DNA from: Schmidtea polychroa | Taxonomy: Eukaryota | Direction of reading: 5' to 3' | NCBI GenBank assembly: GCA_044892525.1 | Contig: CM097887.1 | Location: forward strand, 72,106,001 to 72,170,000 | Length of the DNA: 64,000 bases | Shown: one piece after another, positions 1 through 24,499 of the stretch | Layout: each line of letters starts with the position of its first letter | Numbering within the stretch: the first letter of the stretch is position 1 | The notes under the pieces: generated by a model | Told to the model about the DNA's origin: nothing | Seen by the model: the letters and a program-made list of their open reading frames with translations, nothing else | The model's database searches: none | Made by a program: the position numbers and the translations under genes

Positions 1-294
1 TGTTGAATAGTCCAACCGATCAGGAAGGAGGAAGATTGAGCTGTTGAATAGTGCCAGCCAGTCGTAAGATCAAGTTGTTGAATAGTCCAACCGATCAGGA
101 AGGAGGAAGATTGAGCTGTTGAATAGTGCCAGCCAGTCGTAAGATCGAGTTGTTGAATAGTCCAACCGATCAGGAAGGAGGAAGATTGAGCTGTTGAATA
201 GTGCCAGCCAGTCGTAAGATCGAGTTGCTGAATAGTCCAACCGATCAGAAGGAAGAAGATTGAGCTGTTGAATAGTGCCAGCCAGTCGTAAAGG
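1..294. repeat. Tandem array of about 4 x 75-bp units in the element leader, each unit dimeric (41+34 bp, both halves starting TGTTGAATAGT)
   Basis: Units start at 1, 76, 151 and 226 and are nearly identical; the array is cut by the window edge. Confidence 0.95.
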
Positions 295-1558
295 CCTAGA
301 AAAGCGAGAGATAGCAGTTAAGCTACAATGAGATAATATTTAAATTACTAGTGATATGGAATATTAAAGCTAGCTAGAACAAATTGAATGTAATTTTGAA
401 AATTCGAGTTTAGAGAGGAAATAAACGAGCTCGTGGAAAAGAAAATAAGATTATAATGAAAAAGGAAAGGGAAGAAGGAAACGAATTAAAGAGATAATAG
501 AAAATAAAGAATAGATGAAATGATGATAATGAGTAAAGAGGAAAGTAACTAACTAATTAAAGGGATCCCAGTGAAGTAGAGAAACTCTACGGAATTTTTT
601 TTTTGGGTAAACCGGGAAAATGTATTTTTACCGGTTCCAGAGTAGAACCGAGTGGGATAATAGTAAATACGAAAAGTAAAACAGCGACAACAGCGCAAAG
701 GAATAAGAAAACGAAGGGGGGTAATAAGCAGAGACTGACAACGACCTATTTTTACTATAATTGATAACGAATAGATAATTATTACGACTTTATAGATAAT
801 TGTTACTACCCCATATAGATAATTTAAAATCGACGAAAAATACGGGCTGATGGGATATTATAACCCGCAGAAAGGATTTCACAAAAAGATAGGGGAAGCA
901 CAAACAGAAACCTAAAAGGCGTCTGTTTTTGAATGTTGTAGAAAGAATGATGAAGTCGTGTAAGCAAATGCAACACGAGATCATTTTTTCATTTTAGATA
1001 TCAAGCCAATCCAGCCAACCAAGACAATCCAGAACCTGCACAAAAGGAATTCGAAGAAATCGACAATCAACCAAGGATAAATCCATCCAGAACCCGCACC
1101 GAGAGACACAGCAACCGGAAGACTCCAGAACGGAAGAAGATCTCAGTAGCAGATTCATACAGAATATTTATCGAAGGAAACACAATCAGAACCGAACGCG
1201 TCCAATTCAATAGCCACTAATTACCAAGAAGCGTAAGAAAGGAATCACGGATAAACCCAATCTTAGATCTTCTAGTAAGCCAGGAGACGTATTATTTTCA
1301 GGAGACGAATTACAACAACTCAAAAGAGGACGATCCATTAAACATCAAAGAGGAATATCACAAGGATCCAGAAGAACCAATCAAGTACCCATATTTGACC
1401 AAGAAAATCTCGGATATACCCCTAGTCGATCTCGAAGTAGAGAAAGTCTGTCCGATATCACTAATAGTGTAGCAACGTCAACCGAGGAATTATCAGCCCA
1501 AAGTTTAGTCACATCGTTAGACAATTTAAAAGAAACAGACGAACCTAGAACACCAATC

Positions 1559-4288
1559 ATGACGAATGTCGTAAAAACCGACGAGTATAAAGAGAAGTTC
1601 AGAGGAGAACCGTTCAACGGAAATGCAAACAAGCTAGCAACGTTCATAACTAATTTTGAAGTTTATATCACTGTGTGTGGATGGACACCCGAAGCAATTA
1701 GTAAAAGGATGCCGTTGTTTTTGTGCGATAGTGCATTAGAGGTATATTTAGAAGCTAAAGAGAGAGACACGAAATTAGAAAAGTGGGAAGATATTAAAAC
1801 ATTCCTGAAGAAAACCTTCGGAGCCAGTAAGCCAATCAACCAGGCGTTGGGCGAACTAGCAAATAGGAAACAAAGAGCAAACGAATCGATAACATTATAT
1901 GCCAGTGAATTGCGGAGATTAGCAAAGAAAGCAATGAATGGAAAATTACCCGAAGAAAATCTGATTGGTTATTTCATAGAGGGATTACGCCGAGAAGAAG
2001 TAAGAGCCTCAGTAGGTTGTCAAATGTGCAAAACATTAGAGGAAGCCATAGATTGGGCTACAAGATGCGAGCTCCACCTTCCAGCTCAAATGAATATTAT
2101 GCAAGAGGAGGGAAGGATAGCGACAGCAATAGCGAAAGCGGATAACGGAGATAACAACAATCAAGAACCGAAAATGAATCAATTTATACCAGGAGCGCAC
2201 CAAATTTTCAAACCACCACAAGGACGATCAAACGGGAATAATGGTAATCGTAACAACCCGAATAATGAGAACAATTTCAATAATCGGCGAAATATGAACG
2301 ATAACAAGCAGTGCCGAACATGCGGTAAACCAGGACACTGGGACAGAGATTGTTATAGAAATTCAAATTGTAATCGTTGCGGACGGCGTGGACATACCGA
2401 AAATGTATGCCAATTGCGAGGCTGTTTTAACTGTGGTCAGCCAGGTCACATCTCCAGAGATTGCCGAGAAAGGGGCCAACAACAACGACCACCACAGCGA
2501 AATAATAATTATATAGCGAATCCGCAACGACAAAGTAACCCTAACGAAGGAAAACAAATGAACGTTATGCAGGAAATTTCGCAGATGAAACAGATGATGC
2601 AACAAATGATGAGACCAAGACAAGAACCAGCACCACAACAAACCCAGAACATACGTATGATGAGGAGTACCGAAAATCTCAACAATTATGAAGTGCATCA
2701 ACATGTACAAGAATGGCAAAGGCTACAGGCCGAGGAAGAGAGGATAAAACAAGAACGCAACCAACAACGACAAGAACAACCATTGCGAATAAATATGATG
2801 AAGTTAGTAAAAGACCTGAAGAGCCAGTATTGCTACAATTACGGGAAAAGCCCAAGGGTAGTACCCATGACTGAACCAGAAAAGGTAAAAGAAATAACAA
2901 CGGAAATGAAAACAGAGAATTCAACCACGATCTTAAAAGGAAACCAGAGAACTCAGAAAATATTCTGGAAAAAGATAAAGGATAAAATCGAAAAAGAACA
3001 TAATAAAGCGAAAACCGAGACAGAAGATGAAAATAACAAGAGCGAGGAACAAACCAGTCAACTAAATCACCAAATGCTACAAGAATTAGAATCAGAAGAA
3101 ACAACAATATTCGAAAGAAAGAAACTAAAGAGAGTACCAAGGATGAGAAACTTGCAAATCAATATGATGAAAAGGACAAAAGATGTAGCATCGTCAGACG
3201 AGGAAGAAGATTATGTAAGTAGTTTGGGTGGAGAAATACTACAGCCGAATGAAATAAGCGAACCCCCAAAAGAGGAAATCAAAGAGGAAGAAAGCGGAAA
3301 CGAGATAACCAGTGAAAGTGAAGACGAAGATATCGAAATAAAGTTGAGAAAAGCAAGGGAGGAAGCGATAAAACAGGTAGCCGAAATACTCCCAGTAGTA
3401 GTGAGGAACCAAGAGTTCATCGACGTAATACCATTCAGGCGATTCGTGCAAAAAGTGATGAAATTGGAAAGAAACGAGAAAGATCTAATACCAAACGAGG
3501 AGAAATCAAGTATAAAAAATTATATGGAAAAAATGAAGCAGGCCGATACCACGCGGTATGTAATAAAAATTGGAACGAGTAGAGGACTTGAAAGAATGTG
3601 GATAAAAAATACAGTCACCGACGAACTTTTCGATTGGATACGAGAACATTTGGGAAGTTCGAGAAAGAAAGAATATCTGTATCAATACCAAGGAGAACAG
3701 ATCAAACCAGATATGCACTTAGTAGATGCACTAATATGGCCAGGAGAAACGCAAATACTGAAGTTGCATAAAGAAAAACAACCAGCCAACATTTACGATT
3801 GGGCTAAAGATGCCAAGGCAGAATATGATTTTAATATCAAATTGAAATTAGAACAAATAAAACAATGTACTCTGAGACGAAACCTGGATAAGCTGATCAA
3901 ACAAATTCAAGAACAAGTAGAAGACAACTGGGATTTACTCATCACCAGACGAGCCCCAGCCATGTACGAACTAATGAGCCGGTTGCGAGATACAGAAATG
4001 CTCCGAATGAGTGATTGGAGAACCATAAATTTGATCCACAAATATGGAAGGTTAAAAGAGACCCAGCCACAGAGGTTGGAAATAACCATATGGTTACCGA
4101 ACGAAGAAAAACGACGAATAAAAATGAGCAATCAGAGTACAGTGGATGACTTGGTATCAAAAATAAACCAAGAGATAACGGAAAAGGTACGTAGAGAAAA
4201 TAATATTACGAGCGGAGGACGACACCTCGTTAAGCGAAATGGGTATGTGGGACAATCATCAGATAATCAGGATAGTACCAATGGATGA
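1559..4288 (+). CDS. gag: Gag: capsid-like N-terminus, 3 CCHC zinc knuckles, Q/N-rich and acidic regions, C-terminal ubiquitin-like domains
   Basis: CRTCGKPGHWDRDC, CNRCGRRGHTENVC, CFNCGQPGHISRDC at about 2312-2464; retrotransposon capsid-like segment PFNGNANKLATFITNFE...LFLCDSALEVY; 909-aa ORF. Confidence 0.93.
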   Translation: MTNVVKTDEYKEKFRGEPFNGNANKLATFITNFEVYITVCGWTPEAISKRMPLFLCDSALEVYLEAKERDTKLEKWEDIKTFLKKTFGASKPINQALGELANRKQRANESITLYASELRRLAKKAMNGKLPEENLIGYFIEGLRREEVRASVGCQMCKTLEEAIDWATRCELHLPAQMNIMQEEGRIATAIAKADNGDNNNQEPKMNQFIPGAHQIFKPPQGRSNGNNGNRNNPNNENNFNNRRNMNDNKQCRTCGKPGHWDRDCYRNSNCNRCGRRGHTENVCQLRGCFNCGQPGHISRDCRERGQQQRPPQRNNNYIANPQRQSNPNEGKQMNVMQEISQMKQMMQQMMRPRQEPAPQQTQNIRMMRSTENLNNYEVHQHVQEWQRLQAEEERIKQERNQQRQEQPLRINMMKLVKDLKSQYCYNYGKSPRVVPMTEPEKVKEITTEMKTENSTTILKGNQRTQKIFWKKIKDKIEKEHNKAKTETEDENNKSEEQTSQLNHQMLQELESEETTIFERKKLKRVPRMRNLQINMMKRTKDVASSDEEEDYVSSLGGEILQPNEISEPPKEEIKEEESGNEITSESEDEDIEIKLRKAREEAIKQVAEILPVVVRNQEFIDVIPFRRFVQKVMKLERNEKDLIPNEEKSSIKNYMEKMKQADTTRYVIKIGTSRGLERMWIKNTVTDELFDWIREHLGSSRKKEYLYQYQGEQIKPDMHLVDALIWPGETQILKLHKEKQPANIYDWAKDAKAEYDFNIKLKLEQIKQCTLRRNLDKLIKQIQEQVEDNWDLLITRRAPAMYELMSRLRDTEMLRMSDWRTINLIHKYGRLKETQPQRLEITIWLPNEEKRRIKMSNQSTVDDLVSKINQEITEKVRRENNITSGGRHLVKRNGYVGQSSDNQDSTNG

Positions 4289-7200
4289 ATTCCGAACAAG
4301 AGATGTAACATATCAAAAAGAAATACGAGACCGGATGAAAACGTTATATCAAAAATCTACAGAAATAATTGAAATCCACCAACAATGGTTAAAAGAAAAA
4401 GAGCTACAAGGAAAAATCACGAAATTAAATACCAGATCTTGCAGACGAACCCCATGGGAAAGAGTGTGGAATGCGGAAAGTAAGGAATGGGAAATCCGGA
4501 AAGGAACCTTCGTAGAAACAGACATTGGTGAGACAGAAAGTGAATCGGAGGAAGAAGAAGAGGAACCTCCAGAATATGAAGAGGAAGCAAGGGAACAGAC
4601 ATCAGATGACGAAGGCGAGACGGATGTCACATCAGAAAGCGAAAATGAAGCGAGACATATTCATGCAATGAGGAAAAAGGAACGTGAATATGCTGATATG
4701 GACGGCGAGGAAGCGACGGAAGCAAGAGAACGAGAAGAGAAAGAAAGATATAAACAATTAGGCGATATTTTAGCAATGGGAGCGAAAAATCAAAAACGCC
4801 AAGTAGTAGCGTTGGCTAACATCATCTTAAAGACATCAGAGAACATCCACAATCTGAGAGGAATGGCAAAGGCAATAGAGGAATACCGGCAATATAATGA
4901 ATGGTATCCAGAACAGCTAGAACAAATTATTCGAAAATGGAGAAATCAGGAATGGGCACAAGACACCCAGGAGAGGTATCACATCCGAATCAAGTATCCG
5001 GACAAGAGCATCGAGGAACTAGAGGTGCATCCAACAACAAAAATTAGAGAATTAAAAAAGAAATTAGCATATGAAACTCCATTCCATCTGCAACTGTTCG
5101 GAAAATCACTAGACGATAATGCAGACGTCGGGATAACCCCCATGAGATTGGAAGAGACAAATGTATTAACAATGGCAGAAACGTTGGGAAAACCGTTAAA
5201 AAGGAAAAGTAAAATTATTAAACCAACACAAGGCAGTTTGAGTACTCCAAGTCCGAACAAAGCACCAAGTAAATCTAATGAAACTGAAGAAGTTGAAGAG
5301 ATAATCCTGGAAGATAGTGACGATGAACCAGGAGAAAGATCACCGCTATTAGTGAGATGGCCGACAGGAGCCGAAATGTGGACTAATAACCAGCCATCAA
5401 CGAGTTATCAACAACCAACGAAACTGAACATCAAAGAAATCATCGACAATACTACGGAAACCGAAACGGATGAACAATTCCAGAAGCAAAGAGAACCAAC
5501 GAAAGTAACACCAGAAAGGCAAACCGACAAAATAATAGACGAATGGAATGAGTGGCTAAGAAATAACGACAGCTCATTACCCAGAACGGATAACGAAAGA
5601 AATCCGAATTACGAAAATACCAGAGAAGCAGGAACGATGATGGAAAAACGGGCAAAAGGAAGACCCAAGAAACAAGGAGAAAAGTCTGAGTTCAAAACCA
5701 AAGAACAATTAAAGCAAGAACAAGGGCAAGTTCGATTAGAAAAATTGGATAAAATAGTATGGGATCTAAAGGAAGCCCAACCAACGATCGAAAGAGGAGA
5801 AAAATGGATACGAGAATTGTTAAAAGATATGTTAATAATAACAAACCCACAACTTAGACGTTTGTGGCAACGGAAAGTAGCCAGTACGGAAGCTAGACAA
5901 TTATGGCACACCATTTCGGGGATAATCCCAAAGTTAATCAAAGAGAAAACGAAAACCACCAAAACGGATTGGGACGAAACAAAGAGAGTGATTGAGCAGC
6001 TCACGACAAATGCAAATGATGACGAGCATCACCTAGTGGTAATCACTTATTTGATGTATAATTTGATGGGACTAGCTGCGAGGAAAATACCAAATAAACA
6101 GTTTGCAAATCATGTAGAAATGACCGTTTCAATCATAGAGAATACTATTGAACCACACATTATTCGTGCAGGAGGATGGAAAAGACTGATACAAGCGCCA
6201 CGGAAAAATGAGCAAGAAAGGTCGATGCAAGTTAGATTGAAAAAACTGTTAAATGAACTAGAATGGGAACTACCGATGAAAGATCCCGCAAGCAGAAAAG
6301 CATCAATAAATTCGTTAATGATGACTATGATGATATGGATGTTGTGCACAAGTGGAGCAACAGGTTTCACCATCTACGATTGTGATAATATGATAATGAG
6401 AGATAAATACTCATTGAGAGACATAGAAGAATGCAGACAAGCCTCACCCAACAAATTGGACATCGTGAGAACAAAAGTTACTTACCATGTATATCAAGAA
6501 TCAGATTTCATCAGAACGCAAGCAAGGGAATGCGTAGTATCAAAAAAGGTACTCGCATATTACTGTGGACAATATTCGTATTCGACTCTTATACTACCCG
6601 GTCTGGATAAGGAAATCGTATCAATACAACGAGAGGATTGTAAAGAGCTATTTAGAACCGGAGCGCTAAAAATGCATAACGGAGTGACAATTCACGGACA
6701 AACTGGAATGATTAAAACCGAAAGTGTTTACGTAGCCGGAAAAGTAAAATCATCAGATGGGTCATGTAACGGAGGTACGTATACGATCCGAGGCGAGGTA
6801 ATATCGGGAGTTGTAGTGATCGAGTCTTACACGGTCGAATTAAAAGAATACGAAGCGCAATTTGACGCAAATAATTACCAAATGAAGACCAACCCAGCGT
6901 GTAAAGCTACAGAAAACGTATGCAGGACAGGAGTATCAACTATAATCTATGAAGCTAATACCCAAAAATGCCGACTCCAACTGTTAAAAAGTGCTTTGTT
7001 CAATGAAGTAAAAGGAGAAATATATGAGAACGAGAACGACGAGGATGGAAACGACAGAGTGAGAATGCGAAATGGAAAACCAATGCCACCATCTCCCAGA
7101 GAAAAGAGACTTTCAACGCAGAAGACACCAACAGCATTAATCACAGACGATCCAGATCTAGGTATGAGGTTTATCAAAGAGAAAGAAACCACCAAATGTG

Positions 7201-10200
7201 ACAGTATAGTATATAAAACCAATTACGCAGGTATCTATATGTCGAGACAAATAATCGATAGAGCAGTGGGAAAGATAGCAACGGAGGACGTAAAACTATA
7301 CTTATATGCAAATAATAAAATGGATTTTCTATTTCATCGCGGACAAACGACCTTACAAAAAGTATATTACGATCTGATACAAAACGATTGTTCATTGAAT
7401 AAAGAAATATTGAAAACAAAGCTAGCTATTGCGATAACGCACCCAGATAACACGATGCCATCACTCCCATTACCAGATGGACACTTTGGTAGAATGGTAG
7501 GAGAAGTGATGTACACATACCAGTGTACCAAGACGTATGCACGAATGCCAGAAAAATCCATACTACCCGAAAAGAGATGTGCAAATGAATTAGAAATCCG
7601 TTATAAAGGACAAAATCGATTCGTCCAACCAGTCACTAGAATTATGAATCCAGTGGGTTTCTACCCAAATCTCTTTAACTGTTCTAATGCATACGGACCT
7701 TTATATGAAAGGCCCGATGGGAAATGGATGATGTTACCGGGAAAAACCATATCCGAGGAGCCCAAGAAATTTGGATTAATAGAACTCGCCACAGAGCTGG
7801 ATTTCAAACCTATAGACGTGTCAAACGGTGGTATGTATTCCCCAGAAGATCTAGAAACAGCACGACTTAACGTACTCTTCCCAGCCAGACGAGAATCCAT
7901 TCTGTCTAATATGGTTACAATAACTGGGGGCACAAATTATCAATCAGGCCCGAATTACGAGCTGCTATTATCGCCAGACCATTTTCAACAAGCTACGTCA
8001 AACATGATGAAAGCAATGTGGGGAAGATTCTTAGTTTTTGGACAAATGATGGCCGGGATATTAGGGATCATACTCATAATTCAGATAGTCAGAGTAATAC
8101 TAACACAAATGTTAGCTTGTTTCGATATATACAAGCGGGAAAAGAAAGTTAACTGGAAAATGATAGTAGGCTTCTTACCATTTTTAGCTAAAACCATGGT
8201 ATTACATGGTCACTCAAAAGACATTCATCGGATAAAGCGATTGATTAAAATATTAACAAAGATTAAAGGAACCGACGAAGAAGTAGGCAGACGATTCCGG
8301 AAAGTAATGTACGATGAAGCAACAAGACGACAATTGAAAAAGAATAAGCCAAAATTCTTGGACCGATTTAGAAGCCAATCATCTAACAGCGATAGTGACG
8401 ACGATGATAACGGGAACGATAAATGTCTTTATCCAAACAGAAACCCAAACGAAAAACCAATGGAAACGGCACCATATTGGGAAAAGGAAAAGACAAACAC
8501 CTGGATCGCCAATGGAAGCTATATACCACCGGATATCGTGGGACCACAAACAGCTTTGACCATGACACAAAATATGTATCCGCAATTACCGAGTCAACCC
8601 GGTATGCATTATATGCCAACACGACGTACCAAAAGTGTAGATCAAGCAGATGACGTAAGAACAATAGCAGCGATGAGTTTACCTGGAGGTCCAGCAGTAA
8701 CGGTTATGATTCAAATCAATGGTAAAGAAACCAATGCTATGATAGACACCGGAGCTAATGTATCAGCGATAGCGATTAATCAAATCCCCAGTAAACACTG
8801 GAAGGATATCGAATCAACAACAATTCACATCATAGCATGTAGTAAAGAAACAGTGGACGTGGTCGGAAGATGGTGGACTACATTGAGATACCAGGACAAC
8901 GAAATTGAAACGTATTTGGCAGTAATACCAAAACTTAGCGTACCATGCATAATCGGAACGGATTTGATGCCAGAATTGTTAAAAGAAGTCGTAATTGACT
9001 TAACAACCATGTGTTTAAAAGACAAAACCGGTAGAATATGCAAGATGAATTCAGTCATCAGATGTCCAGAAAAAATAATAGTACCAGCAAAATCACAGAT
9101 GATTTGTCAGATAAAAGTGGATACGGGTATGGAAGGAGAAGTTATCTTTGAACCAAGCAAGTCATTTGAAAAGCGACGAGAATTACCACTCGCAAGAGAA
9201 ATAATCACAATAAACCAAGAAGGAGTGATACCGCTCAACATCACGAATTTCGAAGAGGAAGACAAAATCATTTATGAGAACGAAAAATTGGGAAGATTGA
9301 CCCCAATGATGGACATAGAATTACCGAAAGTGACCAACGAGATGATCAAAGATGATGAATTATGGACAATAGATAGTATGTTGTTGACGAATGACGAAAA
9401 GAAAAAATTGCACCGATTGTTGGTAGAATATAAAGATATATTCGCCATCTCAGATTTAGACTTGGGTACCTGTGATGTTACCTTACATGCAATACCACTC
9501 ATAGACGAAACCCCAATTGCATTAAGACCATACAAGCTAGCAGAAATGCAAAAAGAAATAGCCGAAGCCGAAGTACAAAAGATGCTGGACGCAAAAGTAA
9601 TCGAACCAAGTTGCTCACCTTGGCAATTCCCAGTGGTCATGGTGAAAAAGAAAGATGGCACCCAACGATTCTGTATCGATTATCGGAAGTTAAACGCAGT
9701 GACCAAGAGAGATACCTATCCATTGCCGGACATCAATGAGATGTTATTGATGTTGCAAGGGGCAGCATATTTTACTTCTTTAGATCTAAAAAGTGGATAC
9801 TGGCAGATTAAAGTCAAAGATGAGGACAAAGAGAAAACAGCTTTCACATTGGGACGAGATCTATATCAATTCAGGAAAATGCCATTTGGACTGACCAACG
9901 CACCAGCATCATTTCAACGGTGTATGAACTTTGTCACCCATGGAATCAAACAATGTATGGTATATATTGATGATTTACTAATCTATTCAGCGACATTTGA
10001 ACAACATCTGGAAGATATCCGAAACGTATTTATTAGATTAAGACAGTGGAAACTCAAACTCAAACCATCAAAATGCGATTGGGCAAAGGAAAAAGTCACG
10101 TTTTTAGGACACATAGTGTCAGCTAAAGGAAAGGAGCCAGATCCAAGAAACATTGAGAAAATAAAAACATGTCCAGCACCGAAAACTGTCACCCAAGTTC

Positions 10201-13200
10201 AGGAATTTCTAGGATTATGCGGATACTATCGCAAATTTATCAAAAATTATGCAGGAATTGCAAAACCAATCCAGGAATTAGTAAAGAAGGATATTTCGTT
10301 CATTTGGGAAAAAGAACAACAACAGGCGTTCGAAACGCTGAGAGATAAACTAATCGAAGCACCTATCCTCGTACACCCAGATTTTAAGAAGCCATTTCTA
10401 TTGGCAACGGATGCAAGCGGGTACGCGGCAGGCGCGATTCTGGGACAATTAGACGATGAGGGAAAAGAGAGAGTAATCGGGTATTACAGTCGAACATTCA
10501 AAAAGCACGAAAAGAACTATTCGGTAACAGAACGAGAAGCATTGGCTATAATACAAGCTATCAAACACTTCCGATATTTACTATGGGGACATGAGATATG
10601 CATAACCACAGATCATCAACCATTAGTGTGGTTAGGGCAACATAAAGAAGCGTCCAGTAGACTGATGCGATGGGCCATGCAATTGCAAGAATACTCCCCA
10701 TTTATAAAATTCAAAGCGGGAAGAGCAAATGCCAACGCCGATTGTATGTCAAGATTTATTTTCCCAGATTTGGTGGATTCAGAAATGCAACGCATATGCT
10801 TAATAGTAGCGGAAGATTTGGATTTCTGTCAATTACGAAAGGACCAACAAGAGGACGCGGAATTAAAACAAATTATCGATTATGTAAAAACCGGAAAGAC
10901 AGAGGTATATGCGAAAGACCAAAAATTAAAAGAACATATGGATAAACACCGACACCGATATATTATAGAGAAAGATTGGTTGCTGATAATGGATGGGGAA
11001 AAACGATTAATGTGTATACCGGAAAACCGACGAAAAGAGTTACTAACGCAATATCACGATGGGAGATTGGGAGGACATATGTCATCGAAAAAGACGTTAG
11101 CAAGAATGAAACAGAAATATTTTTGGCCTACGTTAACTGAAGATGTAACCGAATGGGTAAAAAATTGTCTAACTTGTGCAACCAGGAAGAATACTGGATC
11201 GAAATGGAAAGCACCTTTAACGCCAATGCCAGTACCAATAGAACCAATGACAATGATATCCATGGACGTAGTTGGTCCACTACCAGAGTCAGATAAAGGA
11301 AACGTTTACATTCTAGTGATCACAGACTTTCTTACGAAATTTCCAGAAGCATTCGCGATGCCAGACCAAAAAGCTAAAACAATCGCAAAAATTTTGGTAG
11401 AAGAGATATGTTGCCGATATGGAACACCAAAACAAATCTTAACCGATCAGGGAACTAATTTTATGAGTGAGATAATGAGCGAAGTAACAAATTACTTCAA
11501 AATAGCAAAACTAAGAACATCTCCATACCACCCTCAAACCAATGGGATGACGGAAAGATTTAATGGAACACTTATACAAATGTTATCAAACTACGTTGAC
11601 CGTCACCAACGAGATTGGGACGAATATATAAACCTATGTCTTATGGCGTACAGAATGTCGATTCACGCATCAACGAAAATGAGCCCATTCAAATTAATGT
11701 ACGGAAGAGAATGTAACATGCCAATGGACCTGGAATACCAACCACCGATATCGCAGTATATGGAGATCGATGATTATGTTACGAAATTCAAGGAAAGAAT
11801 GCAAGAAATTTGGGAAACTGCGGGATTAAATATCAAGTTCTACCAGGAAAGTTATAAAGATTTACACGATCGAAAGAAAAACGTGAAGCAACATACGTTC
11901 CAAACAGGTGATTGGGTAATGATAGAAACCCCGGAATTAATTCCAGGAACCACAAAAAAGTTACAACGCAACGGAAAAGGACCATATGAGATCTTATTCG
12001 TAGGCGAAACTAATGTAAGAGTGAAATTGGTAAATAACCCCTTTACCAGACCAATATACGTAAACGTGGCACGATGCAAATCAATTCCAAAAACAGCCAC
12101 TAGTCAACCAGAAGGCCGTACATTAACCACACGTTCGCAAACCTACCGAATGAACATGATGCAACAACTCGCAGAACCGATCACTGGACGATTAGGTATC
12201 CAACCATCAGAAGCGGAAAAGATTGTAAAAGAGGTAAAAATTAAAATACCTGGATGGGCAAAAGATCGATTAGATTTCGAAATATTAGGAGGATTATTGA
12301 CGATGATCGAGAACTATGCAAATAGAGAAAGGACACACCCATTATTGCGAGTAGTCAAAAGCCAATGGCCAATATTATTTACAATAACAGATCATTACGG
12401 AGACACACCATTACACAAACTCATGAAAGTAGGTAACAACGAGCAAATACTAGAAACAATAGAAGCATTTCACGACTGCAAGCGATCAACAGAACAAACA
12501 AACAACCAAGGTTACACACCATTAATGATAGCCGCAAACAGAGGCAAAACAAAAGACATTATAACCGCATTACTCGATACCGGATCGAAAATAACTACAC
12601 AAGACCACGAGCGGAAAAACGCTCTACATCATGCTATCGGAGGGAGAAGTACCGAGGCGTTCACGTCATTGATGGAACTACTATCATATGAGGACAATCG
12701 GGAAGTTGGAAACATGTATGATGGATTGTTAACAGCGATCAAAGAAAAACTGACGACAATTACCGGAATATTAATTACATGGAGAAATCCAATTCGAAAC
12801 GATTATATGATCAACGTAAACGAAGCGTTCACGAGAGGAGAGAACACGCTGATGAGAGAAGCTATGAAAGGACATCATTTATTCGAAATCCCGAATCAAT
12901 TACTAGAACGAGGGATAAAATTCACAAATCACAAAGACGAACAGTTAACAAAAAAGCGAATCGACACATTCGAAAAATCACTATTTCAATTTACTAACCA
13001 AGTACGAAATAAATATTGGGAAACGGTAAGTGTGTTATATATGATGGACACGATGAATAACATCCGCGAGAATTACATGGATATTATCCAAATACTTACA
13101 GCAGAGGAACGAATCAATAATCCAAACGGAAAGAAAACGAAAATAAGGTATGAGAAATCCAGGGAATCAAAGTCAACAACGAACCAAACGGTCACAAACA

Positions 13201-15368: not shown

Positions 15369-15528
15369 AAAGGAATATGACTGTATATAATTGTAAAAAG
15401 TAAGTATATCTTATGTATATAACAGTACTATATCTTTATATAAGCGCGGTATCAATATTATACAATAACGGGAATCATAAAATAAAATTAAATTTACATA
15501 AGAGTTGAAAAGTGTATATAAATTAGGA

Positions 15529-15888
15529 ATGGATCAAGGAAATAACGAAATGAACCACAATACAGTAACTGAAGAATTATGGAAGCAACAATGTGCCGTA
15601 TTAGCACAATTAGTGTCCAATTTGCAAGAACAAGGATTGACGATGCACAGAAACCTGATCGAGAGTATGAACAGAGGATTTAGTTATTTGAAGATAATTG
15701 AAGACCAGAGGTTAAAAATCGAACAAATGCAAAGAGAGATAGAGAGGATAACCCAATATAGCCGTCGACAGGAAATTGAAATAGACCGAATGAGGGAGGA
15801 AGCAGAACAGACAGAAATAGAAGACTGGTCGGAATGGCTAATGAATAGAGAGGAGAGCGGGCACGAAGCCGACTCTTCCGAACCCTAA
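15529..15888 (+). CDS. Accessory coiled-coil ORF of unknown function (ATG 15529; the ORF track start at 15505 is a TTG)
   Basis: Co-oriented with the element, same A-rich bias, heptad-like E/Q/R-rich sequence. Confidence 0.7.
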   Translation: MDQGNNEMNHNTVTEELWKQQCAVLAQLVSNLQEQGLTMHRNLIESMNRGFSYLKIIEDQRLKIEQMQREIERITQYSRRQEIEIDRMREEAEQTEIEDWSEWLMNREESGHEADSSEP

Positions 15889-15973
15889 ACCAAACCTAGC
15901 TTAAAATGTAAATAATTGTAAATAAAATATCGAACCTGTATCGATAAGAACTATTTGTACATATAATTATAGA

Positions 15974-17362
15974 ATGGATAAACGACAAAGAGAAGAGTTC
16001 AGAGAGATTGTCGAGCAAGTCCGAAAATCTACAACGATCAGAATACACAAACATGTTATGTGCGGAATATGTGAAAAGTTGTTAAAGGAACCTCACCAAA
16101 CGCAATGTGGATGCAGAGTATGTAAAGAATGTATCAGTGAAGCAATAAAGAATAGACCACAGAGGTGCCCGGTGTGTAAAGAGACACTAATATCGAGTTT
16201 AGAAGACACTAACGAGGATAAAGCCGCAGTGAAAGACATGTTAAACACCAACCTGGGATGCAAAAATGCCCCATGCGAATGGAAAGGAGTAATATGGAAG
16301 GTAGTACAACATATGGGAGAATGTATGTACAGAATTGGCCAGTGTGAAAGGTGCCATAAAACCATTCGAGCAAGCGAAGAAAAAGAACATCAAAGGCAGT
16401 GTGAAGAGAGATTGGAAAGATGTGAACACTGTGGAGAAATAGATACGTGGATAAATCTCACCCTCAAACATCACAATGTCCAAGAGGAGAGAGTATGTGC
16501 GGAGTTCGGTGGGGAATGCCCAAACGGATGTAACCAAGGGGAAATAATAAAGGTGGCACAGCATCTAAGGGAATGCGAAAAGAAAAGAATGACATGTGTA
16601 CTAGGTAGATGGGGTTGTCAGAAATTACTACACCGAGGTGAGTTACCACATCATTTAGTAGAAAATGCTTCAACTCACGCAGAAATGTGGTCGACTGCGT
16701 TACAAGAAAGCGAAGAGAAAGTAAAACAAATGGAGATAGAGATAACATCGTTGAAAGTGTTAGTCAAAGAACTACTAGAAGAAAGGGAAGCGTTCGAAGA
16801 AGCCCGAGCAAACATAAAGATGCAAATAAACCGAACAGAAATTAGTAATAATCAGGCCAAGGAGCTACATCAGAAAATACGGGAAATAAATCTAAATGAG
16901 ATAACCCCAACAGCACCCTACATATGGAAAATAACGGGAGTAAAAGAAAGAATACGAAAAGCAAAAACCGGAGAAGAGACAAGAATAACAAGTCCTACAT
17001 TCCATTCTTGGAAAAATGGGTACAAAATGAAAATGAAGATATATCCCAACGGGGACGGAACCGGATTAGATACGCACTTTTCGATTTTCTTTCTGTTATG
17101 TAAAGGAGAATACGACGAAATATTAGAATGGCCGTTCCAGGCAAAAATCGATATTACCCTGATGAACAACCAAAGTATACATGAGCAAAGCTTCAAAACA
17201 ACGGGGAATCAAATAGCTTACCAGAGGCCCCTCAACGAAGAAGGATCAGCAACAGGAGCACCCACGTTCATCTCACAACAAAGAGTAGAAGATATGGCGA
17301 GAAATGATACCATATATATCAAGATGACCGTGAGGAAAGAGGAGAAGGGTAGAACGGAGTAA
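15974..17362 (+). CDS. TRAF-like protein: RING, TRAF zinc fingers, coiled coil, MATH domain; intronless
   Basis: CGICEKLLKEPHQTQCGCRVCKEC...CPVC; CKNAPCEWKG...HMGEC; CPNGC...HLREC; MATH: YIWKI...SPTF...GYKMKMKIYPNGDG...HFSIFF...GEYDEILEWPF...DTIYIKMTV. Confidence 0.93.
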   Translation: MDKRQREEFREIVEQVRKSTTIRIHKHVMCGICEKLLKEPHQTQCGCRVCKECISEAIKNRPQRCPVCKETLISSLEDTNEDKAAVKDMLNTNLGCKNAPCEWKGVIWKVVQHMGECMYRIGQCERCHKTIRASEEKEHQRQCEERLERCEHCGEIDTWINLTLKHHNVQEERVCAEFGGECPNGCNQGEIIKVAQHLRECEKKRMTCVLGRWGCQKLLHRGELPHHLVENASTHAEMWSTALQESEEKVKQMEIEITSLKVLVKELLEEREAFEEARANIKMQINRTEISNNQAKELHQKIREINLNEITPTAPYIWKITGVKERIRKAKTGEETRITSPTFHSWKNGYKMKMKIYPNGDGTGLDTHFSIFFLLCKGEYDEILEWPFQAKIDITLMNNQSIHEQSFKTTGNQIAYQRPLNEEGSATGAPTFISQQRVEDMARNDTIYIKMTVRKEEKGRTE

Positions 17363-17500
17363 CCAATCGAATAATGTTGTATATAATAATCTGTATATAT
17401 CGGTGTATATAACCAATAAAATATTATATAATAATAGTATGAAAACCCTAAATACGAAAACCCAAAAATGATGCGAAAATTTCCCAAGAAACAGTAAATA

Positions 17501-18610
17501 ATGAATAAATTCCTTTTCATAATAAAAAGATTAATCGATGTCTATGATTTAGAGATGACACAAGAGAAAATAACCGAAACTGCGATAGCCCCAACCAATG
17601 TCAACAAGACACAAATTCCCCGAGAACATAATAAAAAATGGAACAAAGTAATGTTCCAACTAACTAATCTCACCCGAAATCACATCGAAGAAACTAGAGA
17701 AGATGAGAATAGTCAATACCAATGGTTAATACACAACTTAAGAGCGGAAGCAGAAGCATGCAAAAGAGCATCAAAATGGGCGTCACTAGAAAATACCCGC
17801 CAAGAAGCACACAGCCACTACTTAAAGCAGCTAGTGCAGGAAGCGAGAAAAAGACTTACCGATGAGAACACCAAGCGCGAAGCGGAAAAACAAATAGAAG
17901 ACAGGAAAATGATGCACTTAGTGGCAGAAGCGAGAAAATGGAAAAGACAAAACAGAGAAATGAAAAAAGAGATGAAAGAATTGCCCATGAGACTCGGATA
18001 TGAAAGCGAACAAGGTAAATGGGAGGAGAATTTAATAATAAAGGAAGAATTGAAAAGGTTGAGAAAGGTCGCCGCCCGAAGCCAAACCTGGCAAACAAAG
18101 GCTATGGAGTTTGAGCGACATTTGGCAATGAAGTGCGACATAAGAGAGCACGAGAATGCCGCAATGGAAGAGATGATAACCCAACAAGCGGGACGGGTTG
18201 TGGAATTAGTAAATCAGGTAGAAGAGATGAAAAGAGACCTTAATGGATTACAAGGATCGCTGGAACAAAGAAACATGGTCCTAGCGGGAAAAAATAGAAA
18301 ATTAGAAAACGAAAGGAAAATGTACACCGAAAATATTAAAAACTTAGAAATAGAAATTGAAAAATGGAAGGGCGACGAGAAAATCAAGGCCCTAGACAAA
18401 CAGATAGAGGCGAAAGACGAAGAGACAAGGTATCTCACCTATCTGCTCGACGAGGAATTGAACATCACTCGAGCTCTAAGAGACGAAATTAATGAATTGA
18501 GAGCTCAAATCCCCCAATATTACCTACCATACGACCCTATTGCGATACAGTTACATCCCGCGGTCGATAGTGATGAAGGTTATGTAGGCCAGGAGGAAAC
18601 CTTCGTATAA
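17501..18610 (+). CDS. Accessory long coiled-coil ORF of unknown function (alternative start 17555)
   Basis: 369-aa E/K/R-rich ORF, co-oriented, no recognised domain. Confidence 0.75.
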   Translation: MNKFLFIIKRLIDVYDLEMTQEKITETAIAPTNVNKTQIPREHNKKWNKVMFQLTNLTRNHIEETREDENSQYQWLIHNLRAEAEACKRASKWASLENTRQEAHSHYLKQLVQEARKRLTDENTKREAEKQIEDRKMMHLVAEARKWKRQNREMKKEMKELPMRLGYESEQGKWEENLIIKEELKRLRKVAARSQTWQTKAMEFERHLAMKCDIREHENAAMEEMITQQAGRVVELVNQVEEMKRDLNGLQGSLEQRNMVLAGKNRKLENERKMYTENIKNLEIEIEKWKGDEKIKALDKQIEAKDEETRYLTYLLDEELNITRALRDEINELRAQIPQYYLPYDPIAIQLHPAVDSDEGYVGQEETFV

Positions 18611-18785
18611 GGGTGGATGAAAAGATGAAAAACTAAAAACCGGGACGTATATCCCAAACAAAAAAAAAAAAAATTAAAGTATTGTAAAAGTATTCAAGGG
18701 ACTGTAACCCAAACTATTAAATTTTATATCAATGTATACGTATAAGTCGCACTATAGCGCACCATTAACTGTACATATTATAGAT

Positions 18786-19484
18786 ATGAAAATCGAGGAA
18801 ATGATAGAAATTATGAGCGACGTAGAAGAGGGAGAGATTGAGGCAGAAACAACAGAAACACAAACGCTAAAGGCCGAGTTACGGGAAGAGAAATACGAAA
18901 ACGGGAGATTAATAAACAAATACCTAGAGGACCGGAAAATGATAAAGGTGTTAAAGAAAGAGTGCGAAGCGTTGGGGGAAATAAAAAGAGAAACGGAAGA
19001 GGAAAATGAATGGCTACACGAACAAAGGAAGCGAGGGAAAAACTGGGAAAAGATAGCGGAAGAACTATGGAAAGAGAGGGCAAGCTTCAAAGCAAAGGAG
19101 GTAATCCAAGACTACTGGAAAACTGAGGCGAAGGAGCGCCAAACAGCTATAAATAAATTAAAACGACAACTAGAAGAAAACCAACGGGAAAGTAAAGAAA
19201 TGAGGAAGTGGGTCCGCAAATATAGAGAAATAGAAAGAAAACATCAACAACAAAATTACCTGCAAGAAAACGAACAAGATCTCCTACAAATCGAGCTAAA
19301 AAGAAACCTTGAAAAGAAAAGGGAAGAAATTAGACGCTTGGAAAAAGAAATTAGACATCTAAAGAGAGAAGCCCGTGAAAAAGACCGACAATTGGAAATG
19401 CTGCCCGAGTTAAGACACAGGGTAATTAAAGCAGAGTCCACCTTGATGAGAATCAGCGAAAATAATCCAAATCAGAACCATTAA
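18786..19484 (+). CDS. Accessory coiled-coil ORF of unknown function (ATG 18786 preferred; ORF open from 18732)
   Basis: E/K/R-rich heptads; TAG acceptor 2 nt upstream of ATG 18786. Confidence 0.75.
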   Translation: MKIEEMIEIMSDVEEGEIEAETTETQTLKAELREEKYENGRLINKYLEDRKMIKVLKKECEALGEIKRETEEENEWLHEQRKRGKNWEKIAEELWKERASFKAKEVIQDYWKTEAKERQTAINKLKRQLEENQRESKEMRKWVRKYREIERKHQQQNYLQENEQDLLQIELKRNLEKKREEIRRLEKEIRHLKREAREKDRQLEMLPELRHRVIKAESTLMRISENNPNQNH

Positions 19485-19524
19485 ATTAAGGGTCATTAAA
19501 ACCAATTGTAAATAAACATAATGA

Positions 19525-20193
19525 ATGTATAATAGTATCATGCGAGGCGAGATGATGATAACAATGATGGTATTGATGATTCTGATGGAGAACAAACAAT
19601 TAAACGCCCAACCGAAAATCGTACGAGATTACCGCAATCAAAATCAAGAACCTAAACAAGAATCCGGCAAATGCACATACCCTATGACCGTAAAAACCCA
19701 TATCATCCAAACCATTCAATCAACCCGATCCCACATCAACAACATCCAAACAATGTGTAAAAAGAACCCCATTTGTAAAATGATAAACAAACAAATCTTC
19801 GAACAAAGCCAACAGATCGACCAGTTGGAACAACAAATGCAACAAGAGGATTTTGAAAATCTTGTAGAAAAGCCAAAAACACCTCCCGAGATCAATGACA
19901 CCCATTATCTCATATATGTGGTGATCGCAGAGACCCTCCTCCTATGTCTACCAATATTCATGAAAATTTACGAAATTCGAAATAGATGTAGAGTCTCGAC
20001 ATCAATAAGAGTAACCTCGAACCAAAATCCTCAAGAAGTGCCCCTGACAAATCTTAACCCAACCCCATTCCGACCTCGAACCCCGAGTAATCAACCAATC
20101 CAGCCGAAATCTAATAGTCAGACCTATCTCAACATCAATACCCAAACCAACCAACAGCCGCCAGCAGAAGCATCAATGGTTAACAGTTCATAA
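19525..20193 (+). CDS. Accessory predicted type I membrane protein
   Basis: Hydrophobic N-terminus MMITMMVLMILME...LNA, helical ectodomain with 3 Cys, TM YLIYVVIAETLLLCLPIFM, P/N/Q-rich tail. Confidence 0.7.
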   Translation: MYNSIMRGEMMITMMVLMILMENKQLNAQPKIVRDYRNQNQEPKQESGKCTYPMTVKTHIIQTIQSTRSHINNIQTMCKKNPICKMINKQIFEQSQQIDQLEQQMQQEDFENLVEKPKTPPEINDTHYLIYVVIAETLLLCLPIFMKIYEIRNRCRVSTSIRVTSNQNPQEVPLTNLNPTPFRPRTPSNQPIQPKSNSQTYLNINTQTNQQPPAEASMVNSS

Positions 20194-20299
20194 ACTCTAA
20201 CTCAAACATTTGTGTTATTATAGGTGGAAACTTTTATTGTATGTACAAACTATCACCTTAAGTGATACTTGCTTGATCTTGCTTTGACCTAGATCTTAC

Positions 20300-20340
20300 A
20301 ATAAAAATTTTATCATTGTTGTATAATTTTCGTGTTCGTG

Positions 20341-20374
<34 letters not shown>
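20300..20374 (+). terminator. Poly(A) signal with GT-rich downstream element and a 29-nt T tract
   Basis: AATAAA at 20300-20305, then TTGTTGT...TTCGTGTTCGTGTT, then a T run at 20346-20374. Confidence 0.55.
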
Positions 20375-20775
20375 GAATGAATGAATTAAGTTAATTATGC
20401 AATTGCGGGACGCAATTTTGATGGGTCCCCGAGTGATTTGTTGGGCTGAGTCGAAAATTTAATCGTTGAAAAATAGGAAAGTAGGGAAGTAGAACATTAA
20501 GAAAAATAATAATAAAATAAATAAAATCAGAAATAAAATAGAATAAGATATAAGGAAAATAATAATTAAGACATAAGAATTAAAACAAAAAATAAAATTA
20601 AGAAAAGATTAAAATAGAACAAGTTGACAAATAAATAAAGAGGAATTCAAGAAATAATAAGGAAATTAAGGAAATAAATAGAAAAACATATTAAAAATAA
20701 AGAAAATAAGGAAAAAACAACCTAAAAACAAGAAAATTATATTAAATTAATAGAAATAAGCGGTACTCAACTCTG

Positions 20776-20904
20776 ATTGGTCCGCACAAATAAGAATTTG
20801 ATATATATACAACTACCAAAAACATTAAATTTACTGTTAACCCCGAGCATTTCATAGGTAAGAAAAATGTTTACTGTTACTGTTAACCCCGAGCATTTCA
20901 TAGG
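20776..20904 (+). promoter_or_regulatory. Promoter-like cluster: reverse CCAAT, TATA-like run and a 28-bp direct repeat
   Basis: ATTGG at 20776, TATATATA at 20802, TTACTGTTAACCCCGAGCATTTCATAGG at 20831-20858 and 20877-20904. Confidence 0.35.
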
Positions 20905-22978
20905 ATCGACACTACTGGCCAAGCAACCGTCATTCAGAAAACTCCACGACTATTCAAAACCAGTTCAGAGACCGAAATACCATTCATCACAATAATCGAC
21001 ATCCAACGGACCACCATTCAAACTATTTGGAACGAACAACATTGAATTTTGACTCAGCCTAAACAATAGTAAGGGGTATTTCATTTGTTTATAGATTTAT
21101 TTAAGTATTTGTAAAGCTAATAGTAATGGTAAATATTAACGATTAAACATTTTGGTTAACTCTCTTCATTTGATTCTTCATTTTAATAACTTTAACGTAT
21201 TGATGTAATTTGTATTATTTAAGTATTTCAGAATTAATAAAATATTTTTATCCAGATGTCCGTATTTTATTTGAATTAAAGATTTTATGAATTTTCATTT
21301 AACGAGTAACGTGGAGTTGAGCTACTCCATGTCATGGTATGAGGTGCCTTCGGGAGCTCAGCCGGTGGACATGGAGTATTTCAATCACGCAGCTAGATTG
21401 GGCCGAAATGTGAAGGCTTCTTCACGGGTCCTATCGCTGAAGATGCGACTAAATTATCACAAGGGGTCATGGTTAAAAGAATCGCTGGCAGACAATGATT
21501 TTCACAGAGATAGTCGTACGAATGAAGGGATTTTCAAGGATTTACACAGTGACTGAGGGCGTCGCATTCCTTTTTCTTTCGTCAAGTCGTTTTCGTAAAT
21601 CTTACCCCTATTGAAAAAGGAGATCCAGACAACGATTTAGTGAACTTCGTCAAAAATAACGACATCTCATAGTACGCTTCATCTGGAAACATGGTTTCAT
21701 CAAGTTAATTGCGACAACGTCTATTTGCCGGACTCAGTAGAACTAATTTCGTATGAAATTCCGTTATCATAGACCCAATGTCATCTAGCCTGTCCAGATT
21801 GTATGTCAGGTTACGAAAGTATCCTAAAAACTTTAACTAACTCGAAACTAGAAAAATGCGAGATTCTACGAAAACCTCTCTAATATTATAATCAGAAAGT
21901 TTTTATAGACTTAGCTATTTAAAAATTATAAACGGTAAAATATCACCAAATTTAATTAATAACATTTATCTCTACAATAAGAGCCAGGTCTTCACTGTAT
22001 ACATCCAAATTATTGAACCTGAGAGAAAATTTCGAATGGCTAAGGGCAGGTTTCATCGAGACGGCATTACATCTGAATAGGAAAATCCGAGTAGAATGAC
22101 GAGAGTAGTAATATGCTTCAGTATTTGGTAGCATTATTCCCTCGACGATCACTGAAAAGATCCAATAAATTTCCAAACGATGGTGATCATTCACACAAGT
22201 TGATAAGGGTAAAATTCCGCGATGAGAACTGACGGCAGCATAAATCATGATTCAAATAAATCACTGTGCAGAGAAAATCATATGACAGCAGGATCGATGA
22301 AATCACCGTGAAAATGGCATACACTAAGTGAGTGAGATAAGATAGTAGCCATACACGAATCTATGTGGTGAGAGCACAGAATATCAGACTAGCATACATA
22401 ATAGTCGCGACACGTGACATTCACAATAGGTCGATAATGTAATCAACTAGTTGACAGTAGTATCCGTAAATTTGGACATGTGTTATGACCGATGAGATAT
22501 CCCATTAGGGTGTTCAAGTAATGGCCGATGTAAACTCATCACATATTCTCAGACAAATGGTAGACAATATAGATAATCACATTCACTACCGAATTAAAAG
22601 TGCACTTCCAATAACAAATTTCGAATCCAAAAATATGTTGGGAATAGCGATAGTAACTTGTTTTTAATAAATTTAAATAGATAATTTATAGCAAGGTTTA
22701 GTCGCGTACTATAATGTCCCTCTACTAAAGCGTTATTATATTATTTCACCAATATTATATTTACACCCTATTAATTATTACGCCCCTCATGTATACAGTT
22801 AGATCAATAGAGAGTCAAAGTTAATAGCATGCGTCAAACCGATGGCATTTGGTTAAATAAACTGTTTCAACAAATAAGATCCGTGGTAAAACCGGATTGT
22901 AGAATAAGTTTTCCTTCTTTTCGTCAGTCAAGCATCCACGAATGGCCGTGGGTCGTATCTAATTTATTCTAAAATCGT

Positions 22979-23767
22979 ATGTTCTACATTTCATTAGTAT
23001 TATTTATAGCGAGCATGCTACCAACCACTAAATCAGCATTACGGCCGTGCTTCTCGTGCGCGGATAAGAATACGGTGATAAAGGACCTACAAACTCAGAT
23101 TGGACGTTACAAGAGGAAGATAGACGAGCTGGAGGGGACATGGTTTAGTCCCGCTCGGATGAAAGAGATCCAAAAGAAGCTCGATCGTAGCGAGCATTGC
23201 CGGGACGCGCTAATATCTGAGAGCCGGGCCCAAAGAAGTCTAATCAGAGAACAATCCGAGGCACTGCATAAGGTTTACGTGCAGGCGGCTACAACCCGAA
23301 AAATAGTGCAAATTCCCATCCGAGAGGCCGATGACATCTTTCCGCCTCATCACAACCTTTCCTCGAATCCATCTCCACCGTTCAAGAGACCGTGCCGAGA
23401 CTGCGTCGAAACCGAATTGTCCCCCAAGCGACCAGATGTTGTCATCACGGGTACCAGTAAGCCCCCCACTGCTAGTCCATCCGTATCAGTCACCCTTCTG
23501 CAAGTGGCATCTTCAAGTAAACCCAAGCGCAAACAACTCTCTCGTGCAGAGCGCAAGAAGAGACAGCGCGAGCGCGCTACTGCAAAGCCAAACATCCCAT
23601 CAATAGAGGACTCAACCAACGGTGGCAACTCTCACGTGTCCATCGACCTAACAACGGGACCCTCAGCGCGAATCATATCAGCCGCTGGCGTAAGGTGGGA
23701 AGAGAACGCTTCCGAGTTTTTTAACCTCGACGAATTATTCGCCGACACTGAATGGGAGAAACAATAA
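22979..23767 (+). CDS. 262-aa orphan ORF (N-terminal CxxC plus coiled coil, basic RKKRQRER patch, acidic C-terminus) in the candidate 3' LTR region
   Basis: Long ORF, noticeably more GC-rich than its flanks, followed by AATAAA at 23891. Confidence 0.55.
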   Translation: MFYISLVLFIASMLPTTKSALRPCFSCADKNTVIKDLQTQIGRYKRKIDELEGTWFSPARMKEIQKKLDRSEHCRDALISESRAQRSLIREQSEALHKVYVQAATTRKIVQIPIREADDIFPPHHNLSSNPSPPFKRPCRDCVETELSPKRPDVVITGTSKPPTASPSVSVTLLQVASSSKPKRKQLSRAERKKRQRERATAKPNIPSIEDSTNGGNSHVSIDLTTGPSARIISAAGVRWEENASEFFNLDELFADTEWEKQ

Positions 23768-24499
23768 AATCCCAGTGGCGGTCAGGATGAGGAACAAGGA
23801 TCCGATCTATGTTGATTATGATGTTTTCTCTTCTTTCGACAAACGTTAGTAAAGTGTACAGCTGAATCCTTGTGTCATAACATTGAAATTAATAAATCTT
23901 GTTGTCTTACACGTCTTCGTTCATGAATAATTAGACTTTAATTAAGTGGGTCGAGTAGAGAACCCGCAAGATCTAGTGAGAAATTCCCAATTTGCATTCA
24001 GCGAATCCCGATAAGCGGTTGTGTAAGGAAATGGACGTAAGCCCTTCTATCGGCAGTCGTGAATGGGAAGTCGAGGCCTCAGCAAGGAGTAGTTTTAAGG
24101 CAGAAGCTCACCTGCTTGCTGGCGTCTCGCCTGCATAGTGCAGTACCAACGTGAAGTGATTCACGGGCACTATGTTGGAAGAAAGTTATGTGGGGTTTCA
24201 CTCCAGGTTGACAAATCGGTGGCACCTTTTATTCGAGATGGACAATCAACCCTTAGACCCGTCAACATGGTAGAGTGGTCAGCCGAGGTGTAACCCCAAC
24301 AAAAGTTACAAGTCAAACCATAGATCTTTGGATAATTTTTGTTCATCGTTTCATGTCAAAGAATAATAAATCAAAATATGGAACTGCCGAAAAGAAGGAA
24401 TATGATATTCTATTTAATCGAGCTCTTTAAAAGATTAACACAATTCAAATGTTTACTAGCCAAAGTGTTGAACAATTATCCAATGTTTCAAATTCAATC

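Follow-up and report, generated by a model that had tools for sequence, protein, structure and literature searches.

The co-oriented open reading frames (ORFs) at the start of the window, i.e. the whole analysed stretch of 64,000 nucleotides of Schmidtea polychroa (contig CM097887.1), raise the question whether they belong to a simple transposon or to a virus-like agent. The initial annotation placed a giant, intact Gypsy element at 1..24310 and credited it with a fusogen and candidate modulators of apoptosis and NF-kB. The locus very probably belongs to an autonomous, env-bearing Ty3/Gypsy family of the Burro type, still active or active until very recently; this copy would have inserted very recently and is already damaged.

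The contig, read upstream of the window, reveals a Ty3/Gypsy element with a total length of 30,023 bp, most of which the window covers. The LTR pair, target-site duplication (TSD) and PBS located by this extension bear out the giant Gypsy element; its 3' edge (24301) lies near the annotated one, but its 5' edge precedes the window by 5,722 bp. An upstream block of 3,863 bp is identical to the 3' LTR (0 mismatches, 0 gaps; Table 1), and the PBS of 18 nt, 7 bases past the 5' LTR, is complementary to the 3' end of the genome's tRNA-Pro(TGG) plus CCA. The identical LTRs, the TSD and the PBS speak for a recent, integrase-type insertion of such an element. The leader contains a RING ORF and a 75-bp tandem array. 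All long ORFs between 1559 and 20193 are located on the A-rich + strand (42% A). The order PR-RT-RH-IN with catalytic motifs, the TG...CA LTR pair, the TSD and the PBS place the element in Ty3/Gypsy (Metaviridae). A polypurine tract is a usual, not strictly defining, feature of these LTR retrotransposons. Within 400 nt before the 3' LTR every run of purines is shorter than 8, which leaves plus-strand priming unexplained; the 30 nt directly 5' of the 3' LTR are the same in 14/14 siblings.

Table 1. Features of the element in the window (positions of the window; aa, amino acids; TM, transmembrane helix).
Feature	Position	Strand	Basis or remark
75-bp tandem array, terminal part, in 5' leader	1..291	+	array starts some 450 bp before the window
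Polyprotein, N-terminal part: Gag capsid, three CCHC knuckles, Q/E-rich coiled region, UBL domains	1559..4288	+	Pfam; early end by private frameshift
Ubiquitin-like domain 1	3545..3787	+	profile; most divergent in UBL profile
Polyprotein remainder, 3,729-codon frame	4179..15368	+	joined to Gag in siblings (about 4,617 aa)
Ubiquitin-like domain nearest Bcl-2	4965..5186	+	profile
Bcl-2-fold domain; BH2-like GGW retained, BH1 NWGR position replaced	5790..6200	+	profile, structure model
Probable internal signal peptide of Env	6432..6488	+	inference; below hydropathy cut-off in this copy
Env: fusion-glycoprotein ectodomain (PF24664), TM 8025-8129	6489..8129	+	Pfam, hydropathy
Aspartic protease, DTG motif	8703..8978	+	Pfam
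Conserved spacer at Burro's dUTPase-like position	9036..9320	+	65% to family E
Reverse transcriptase (YIDD) and RNase H	9642..10694	+	Pfam
Integrase zinc-binding and core domains	11016..11534	+	Pfam
Ankyrin block 1	12270..12950	+	Pfam, PDB
Second ankyrin block, related to the first	13380..13850	+	Pfam; a single block in sister family E
Predicted second type-I membrane protein: hydrophobic leader 14361-14423, ectodomain, TM 15153-15227, short tail	14361..15368	+	hydropathy
Accessory ORF, 119 aa, charged	15529..15888	+	homologue in family E
Full TRAF (RING, zinc fingers, coiled coil, MATH), 462 aa, intronless	15974..17362	+	Pfam, PDB
Accessory ORF, 369 aa, charged/coiled-coil-like	17501..18610	+	homologue in family E
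Accessory ORF, 250 aa, charged/coiled-coil-like	18732..19484	+	weak homologue in family E
Accessory ORF, 222 aa, hydrophobic N-terminus, one TM	19525..20193	+	
3' LTR, 3,863 bp, TG...CA	20439..24301	+	identical to 5' LTR upstream of the window
ORF inside LTR, 250 aa, omega 0.15	23015..23767	+	no known family
Target-site duplication, 4 bp	24302..24305	.	flank comparison

Pfam confirms Gag, zinc knuckles, fusion glycoprotein, protease, RT, RNase H, integrase and ankyrin, and with PDB matches supports the annotated Gag/Pol, fusion glycoprotein, ankyrin and full TRAF. The ORFs had been described as nearly undisrupted and co-oriented; the shared strand stands, but intactness does not. Owing to a short deletion near position 4,200, the polyprotein of this copy falls into two overlapping frames. 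This deletion occurs in 0 of 29 sibling loci, 25 of which are open over the whole 3.7-kb locus. The frameshift is a lesion of the window copy, and "intact" fits the family, not this copy. A programmed Gag/Pol frameshift is ruled out, as the break is private to this copy. Fifteen siblings were taken from 27 sibling matches ranked by similarity to the window, a choice that favours young intact copies. The polyprotein is one stop-free frame in 12 of them (4,617 aa in the one measured); the other three comprise one frameshifted, one apparently internally deleted and one 5'-truncated copy. The spacer between protease and RT has no dUTPase match by Pfam, PDB or a dUTPase profile.

The suggestion of IkB-like ankyrins acting on NF-kB gained no support: no IkB is found among the best 60 of 167 PDB matches of the ankyrin blocks. 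According to the relevant passages of PMC13563047, planarian NF-kB homologues are highly diverged, RNAi of the best candidate had no effect on the tested immune readout, and TRAF induction depends on TBK1 with no clear immune NF-kB. Our Rel-domain search of the genome gave 0 matches; its controls also gave 0, hence it is uninformative.

The proposed Bcl-2-like and ubiquitin-like (UBL) domains gain support from profiles, the former also from a structure model. As a single sequence, the Bcl-2-like domain is undetected by Pfam and phmmer (best Atlas value 0.79). A genome search with Pfam Bcl-2 leads to other env-bearing Gypsy families, the domains of which are alignable with that of the window. 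A profile of five such element-borne domains, with no host Bcl-2 included, finds Bcl-2/Bcl-xL in all of its best 60 matches (best E 3e-4). In a structure search with the predicted model of the window's domain (pLDDT 60), Bcl-2-family folds occupy ranks 1-12 (Z 11.1-9.2; top match Z 11.1, rmsd 2.7, 121 aligned) and viral Bcl-2 proteins (KSHV, canarypox, A179L, BHRF1) share the fold at Z 8.7-9.7, although matches of helical folds with Z below 13 may be generic. The Bcl-2 assignment is made because the profile and structural tests agree. In the alignment the BH1 motif NWGR is replaced in all five families, A (that of the window) to E. Having lost this motif, the domain may serve as adaptor or decoy instead of trapping BH3 in the classic manner. 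It differs from the Bcl-2/IAP proteins of large DNA viruses in lying within a retroelement polyprotein and in having no NWGR. A six-sequence UBL profile matches ubiquitin, NEDD8 and ISG15, with single domains at E about 1e-4. The UBL-Bcl-2 region has 0 matches among 1.84 billion representatives.

Env is a Monjiviricetes-type fusion glycoprotein (Pfam, E 8e-71) with 0 matches in PDB by sequence. Its gB-type (HSV/gB errantivirus) class is assigned by sequence, from PF24664, a TM and a by-eye match to Smed_errantivirus_5. The position of its probable signal peptide exceeds the hydropathy cut-off in families B, C, P0001 and P0003. Near the C-terminus of the polyprotein, the arrangement of leader, ectodomain and TM is common to families B, C, E and P0001-P0003, with family D possessing the leader only; the ectodomains are barely alignable between families. 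The ectodomain of family C (Atlas 0.93, low recognition; model pLDDT 41) possesses a middle domain at Z 6.4-7.9, mostly to FN3 rows. It has moderate support as FN3-like, a fold examined in family C only. The C-terminal protein is possibly a second surface protein with an attachment role.

Downstream of the polyprotein, the TRAF ORF possesses RING and MATH by Pfam and PDB matches over its RING/zinc-finger and MATH parts. It is full length in 15/15 siblings, all of which also carry the remaining four downstream ORFs. The MATH tree points to no donor: the TRAFs of the window and of family E group with the host locus L153 at 82/84 support only. The host genome also contains many intronless TRAF genes. 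The RING ORF of the leader, located upstream of gag (168 codons stop to stop; PF13920), has cIAP2 as its best PDB match (E 2e-10) and is homologous to the RING half of a BIR-RING gene in family E; Pfam finds no BIR domain in the element's ORFs. It was detected in 13/15 siblings, the misses being the truncated copy and one with its leader outside the searched stretch. TRAF and cIAP are a known signalling E3 pair. The element has seven small accessory ORFs. The ORF inside the LTR shows no internal stop in 148 of its best-scoring 150 matches. It has no homologue in the protein collection and weak, sub-threshold Pfam matches only.

The family is numerous and young. With at most 1 mismatch, at least 81 LTR-PBS junctions, hence at least 81 copies, and at least 167 LTR ends are present in the genome, both lower bounds, from which few solo LTRs are expected among close copies. 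The LTR pairs of 14 siblings (three covered only in part) differ by 0 mismatches in nine, one in four, and two plus a gap in one. Divergence between copies reaches 0.2-1.7% (median 1.2%) as against near-identical LTR pairs within copies, a contrast that would point to parallel replication of several source lineages.

Selection was estimated from 15 copies (the window and 14 siblings) against the non-coding mutation spectrum. Omega is lowest in Env (0.04) and Pol (0.09), followed by Gag and Bcl-2 (both 0.13), the LTR ORF (0.15), the C-terminal membrane protein (0.17), the UBL regions (0.21-0.31), the ankyrins (0.25), TRAF (0.35) and RING (0.36, P=0.05), with the small ORFs at 0.21-0.42; P values are optimistic, the copies being related and not independent. 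Shifted-frame controls range from 0.76 to 5.8 (TRAF frame controls 0.76-0.79). All cargo is family-wide and, judged from these substitution patterns, under purifying selection, weaker on TRAF, RING and small ORFs; it is thus not absent from other copies.

No region is under tighter constraint than the Env ectodomain (4 amino-acid-changing vs 32 silent variants), which would fit a virus-like life cycle. A tentative but credible alternative is an intracellular retrotransposon whose Env and membrane anchors serve at internal membranes, where particles would bud or assemble, and which never passes from cell to cell; the family assignment would be unchanged. An Env in frame with Gag and Pol ties the three to a 1:1:1 ratio, which is not the case in most infectious retroviruses, and infection may be dispensable where stem cells produce the germline, as in planarians. 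The passages of PMC13524379 on such elements likewise describe env-mediated transmission as unknown for most of them. Against an intracellular-only cycle stand the constraint on the ectodomain and the retention of Env in all eight related polyproteins compared.

We consider it unlikely that the cargo consists of structural or processing modules of the element (spacers, scaffolds, solubility tags) and not of host-pathway modulators. Such modules would suit a Bcl-2 domain lacking NWGR in all five families, the persistence of UBL, Env and Pol in P0001-P0003 with no Pfam match to Bcl-2 or ankyrin, and the shifts of cargo between polyprotein and separate ORFs across families. TRAF and IAP/RING, however, are stand-alone full genes, intact across copies, and the RING has its best PDB match in cIAP2. 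Host genes or collapsed repeats lying by chance or misassembly beside an ordinary Gypsy element are a negligible prospect, despite the many intronless TRAF genes of the host, and are refuted by cargo that keeps its order, inside the LTR pair, throughout the siblings examined, by separate flanks and own 4-bp duplications in 12/12 scorable siblings and, as regards assembly, by copies that differ from each other.

We return to the virus-like reading. Signal peptidase and the element's protease would cut the polyprotein, in which candidate processing sites were noted, into Gag, UBL and Bcl-2 pieces, the Env fusogen, Pol enzymes, ankyrin blocks and the second membrane protein. Env would, somewhat more probably than otherwise, pass particles from cell to cell within the worm. 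The chances are about even that the TRAF, cIAP-type RING, UBL and Bcl-2-fold proteins weaken a response of the producing cell (stress, immune or death) that works through ubiquitin. Rather improbable is the full version: live enveloped planarian viruses whose single polyprotein supplies two entry glycoproteins (a fusogen of gB type and, for attachment, a C-terminal type-I membrane protein, FN3-like in a sister family), Gag held at the membrane by Env's internal signal peptide, an LTR-encoded regulator, and a captured TRAF-cIAP-Bcl-2 set keeping producers alive.

The domain architecture is in large part already described, one of the outcomes that the initial annotation named as refuting. As described in the sections of PMC6431247 on these elements, Burro1/GYPSM1 and Burro2-4 of Schmidtea mediterranea go back to Jurka 2007 and Grohme et al. 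2018. Burro/GYPSM1 exceeds 30 kb and possesses a 4,873-aa ORF with Gag, CCHC knuckles, MATH, Ubi/SUMO-like, BCL2 and an in-frame env before the protease, besides dUTPase-like, ankyrin and BIR domains; Arkhipova and Yushenova 2019 (PMC6431247) hypothesized that Burros are integrated proviruses meddling with apoptosis and ubiquitination. Compared by published description and not by sequence, the present element may equal one of Burro2-4. It shares with Burro1-4/GYPSM1 a length of about 30 kb, multi-kb LTRs, a giant ORF with Gag, three CCHC knuckles, UBL and BCL2-like domains, env in frame before the protease, RT-RH-IN, ankyrin after integrase, TRAF/MATH and accessory ORFs. In contrast to Burro/GYPSM1, its polyprotein is shorter (about 4,617 aa), lacks the internal MATH and contains two ankyrin blocks; a full TRAF gene is located downstream and, with no Pfam BIR, a cIAP-type RING ORF upstream of gag. 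The Burro-like element of Dugesia (Girardia) tigrina, as outlined in PMC6431247, likewise has ORF1 without MATH and TRAF/MATH in a separate accessory ORF, but this ORF lies upstream, and ORF1 (5,140 aa) has two knuckles as against three here.

Family E of the same genome possesses the published Burro layout (4,791-aa ORF, MATH inside, BIR-RING gene). Its identity to family A amounts to 90-93% in RT, 82% in IN, 56% in Env and 36% in Bcl-2. The proposed RT/IN phylogeny groups both families (100/100 in the RT and Env trees, 85/93 in RH-IN; midpoint-rooted, small taxon set). The link to the Burro clade is indirect, through this sister family, since it is E that has the published layout. By layout and sister family the element is Burro-type, and both its kind and the provirus idea are already published.

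The relevant parts of PMC13524379 list Smed_errantivirus_1-6 of S. mediterranea, six elements of GAG-ENV-POL order whose Env is gB-type. Closest by eye to the window's Env is Smed_errantivirus_5, of the same GAG-ENV-POL order (72/133 residues identical over the stretch counted); an Env identity of about 54% makes the family distinct from it. Families B, C, D and E resemble Smed_3, _2, _1 and _6, respectively, again by eye. The supplement rows of PMC13524379 for Smed_errantivirus_5 and _6 list neither cargo nor tRNA type. Within the portions of the literature searched, no description of Burro cargo beyond PMC6431247 was found; Burro is named once in the accessible text of PMC11410931. The second membrane protein, the LTR ORF, the BIR-less cIAP-type RING and the missing polypurine tract are apparently unreported, although the Burro2-4 maps of Grohme et al. 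2018 may already show them.

The surprise is therefore modest, element kind and apoptosis/ubiquitination idea being in print. What is added is copy-level evidence that every cargo gene, including the LTR ORF, is under selection in a very young, largely intact family. The question of 2019, whether Burros are viruses and what their cargo does, is now testable by RNAi, proteomics and microscopy in planarians, a suited group. A TRAF expansion in planarians is reported in the pertinent section of PMC6109357; caution is advised, as many TRAF and Bcl-2 domain matches in the genome are mobile-element-borne. BURRO1 transcripts, according to the part of PMC8532177 concerned, are up in the intestine upon smedwi-2 RNAi.

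Bcl-2 matches of Pfam in genome G000 originate in many cases from family B, an env-Gypsy family of smaller size (loci L063/L064/L076 and L065/L066). Family B forms units of ~12.5 kb in head-to-tail arrays, and each comprises an ORF of ~3,050 aa in the order Gag-UBL-Bcl-2-Env-Pol, besides a second ORF. Polinton/Maverick-like elements, encoding PolB, an A32-type ATPase and an integrase, likewise possess their own Bcl-2 gene (L070:5705-6160, L067, L068 and L071), so that in this genome Bcl-2 is borne by two groups of mobile elements that are not related to each other.

Family E is the sister family of the window element's family (for its domains see the table), and many rows in the TRAF-domain search of G000 belong to it. 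The related polyproteins P0001-P0003 are giant Gag-UBL-Env-Pol proteins of 3,771-4,029 aa, with several protease-like domains and a membrane protein at the C-terminus; the Pfam search returned neither a Bcl-2 nor an ankyrin match in these three. In the polyprotein frames of the window element (window 1559-15368) a hydrophobic motif is repeated at many domain borders, with 10 of 11 regular-expression matches being plausible, and these are candidate protease sites.

The 30 nt preceding the 3' LTR (window 20409-20438) lack a polypurine tract and are identical in 14 of 14 siblings (further copies of the family). The five letters 5' of the 3' LTR equal the five letters 3' of the 5' LTR. The LTR start (window 20439-20460) recurs, inverted and imperfectly, ~630 bp into the LTR, at ~21045-21066; this second copy differs by at most 3-4 edits in 12 of the 14 siblings, is weaker in the other two, and may be the remnant of a shorter LTR. 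For tRNA-Pro, the primer type of the element, genes with the anticodon TGG form a tandem array spaced at 475 bp (G000:C1:130.90-130.95 Mb), and the tRNA 3'-end pattern has 2,186 matches across the whole genome.

The 250-aa ORF inside the LTR has 6,992 first-look candidates genome-wide, far exceeding the number of LTRs of the family. Two homologues, at L072 and L081, lie in contexts different from the window element's LTR.

Features of related loci and of the distal part of the window
Feature	Position	Strand	Remarks
Family E	L143-L147		MATH domain within polyprotein; full TRAF downstream; BIR-RING IAP gene
LTR ORF homologue	L072:84-554	-	74% over 160 aa
LTR ORF homologue	L081:7006-7086	-	52% over 27 aa; adjoining family C (env-Gypsy)
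hAT-type transposase fragments	window 58239-61069		decayed
Inverted repeat pair	window 59267-59365 and 59636-59734		99 bp
Low-complexity ORF	window 61892-62869	-	325 aa; short internal repeats; no match in Pfam search

Finally, two different copies (L107/L110 and L115/L118) have an 8-nt left flank and a 6-nt right flank in common, which suggests that both entered a repeat at the same site.
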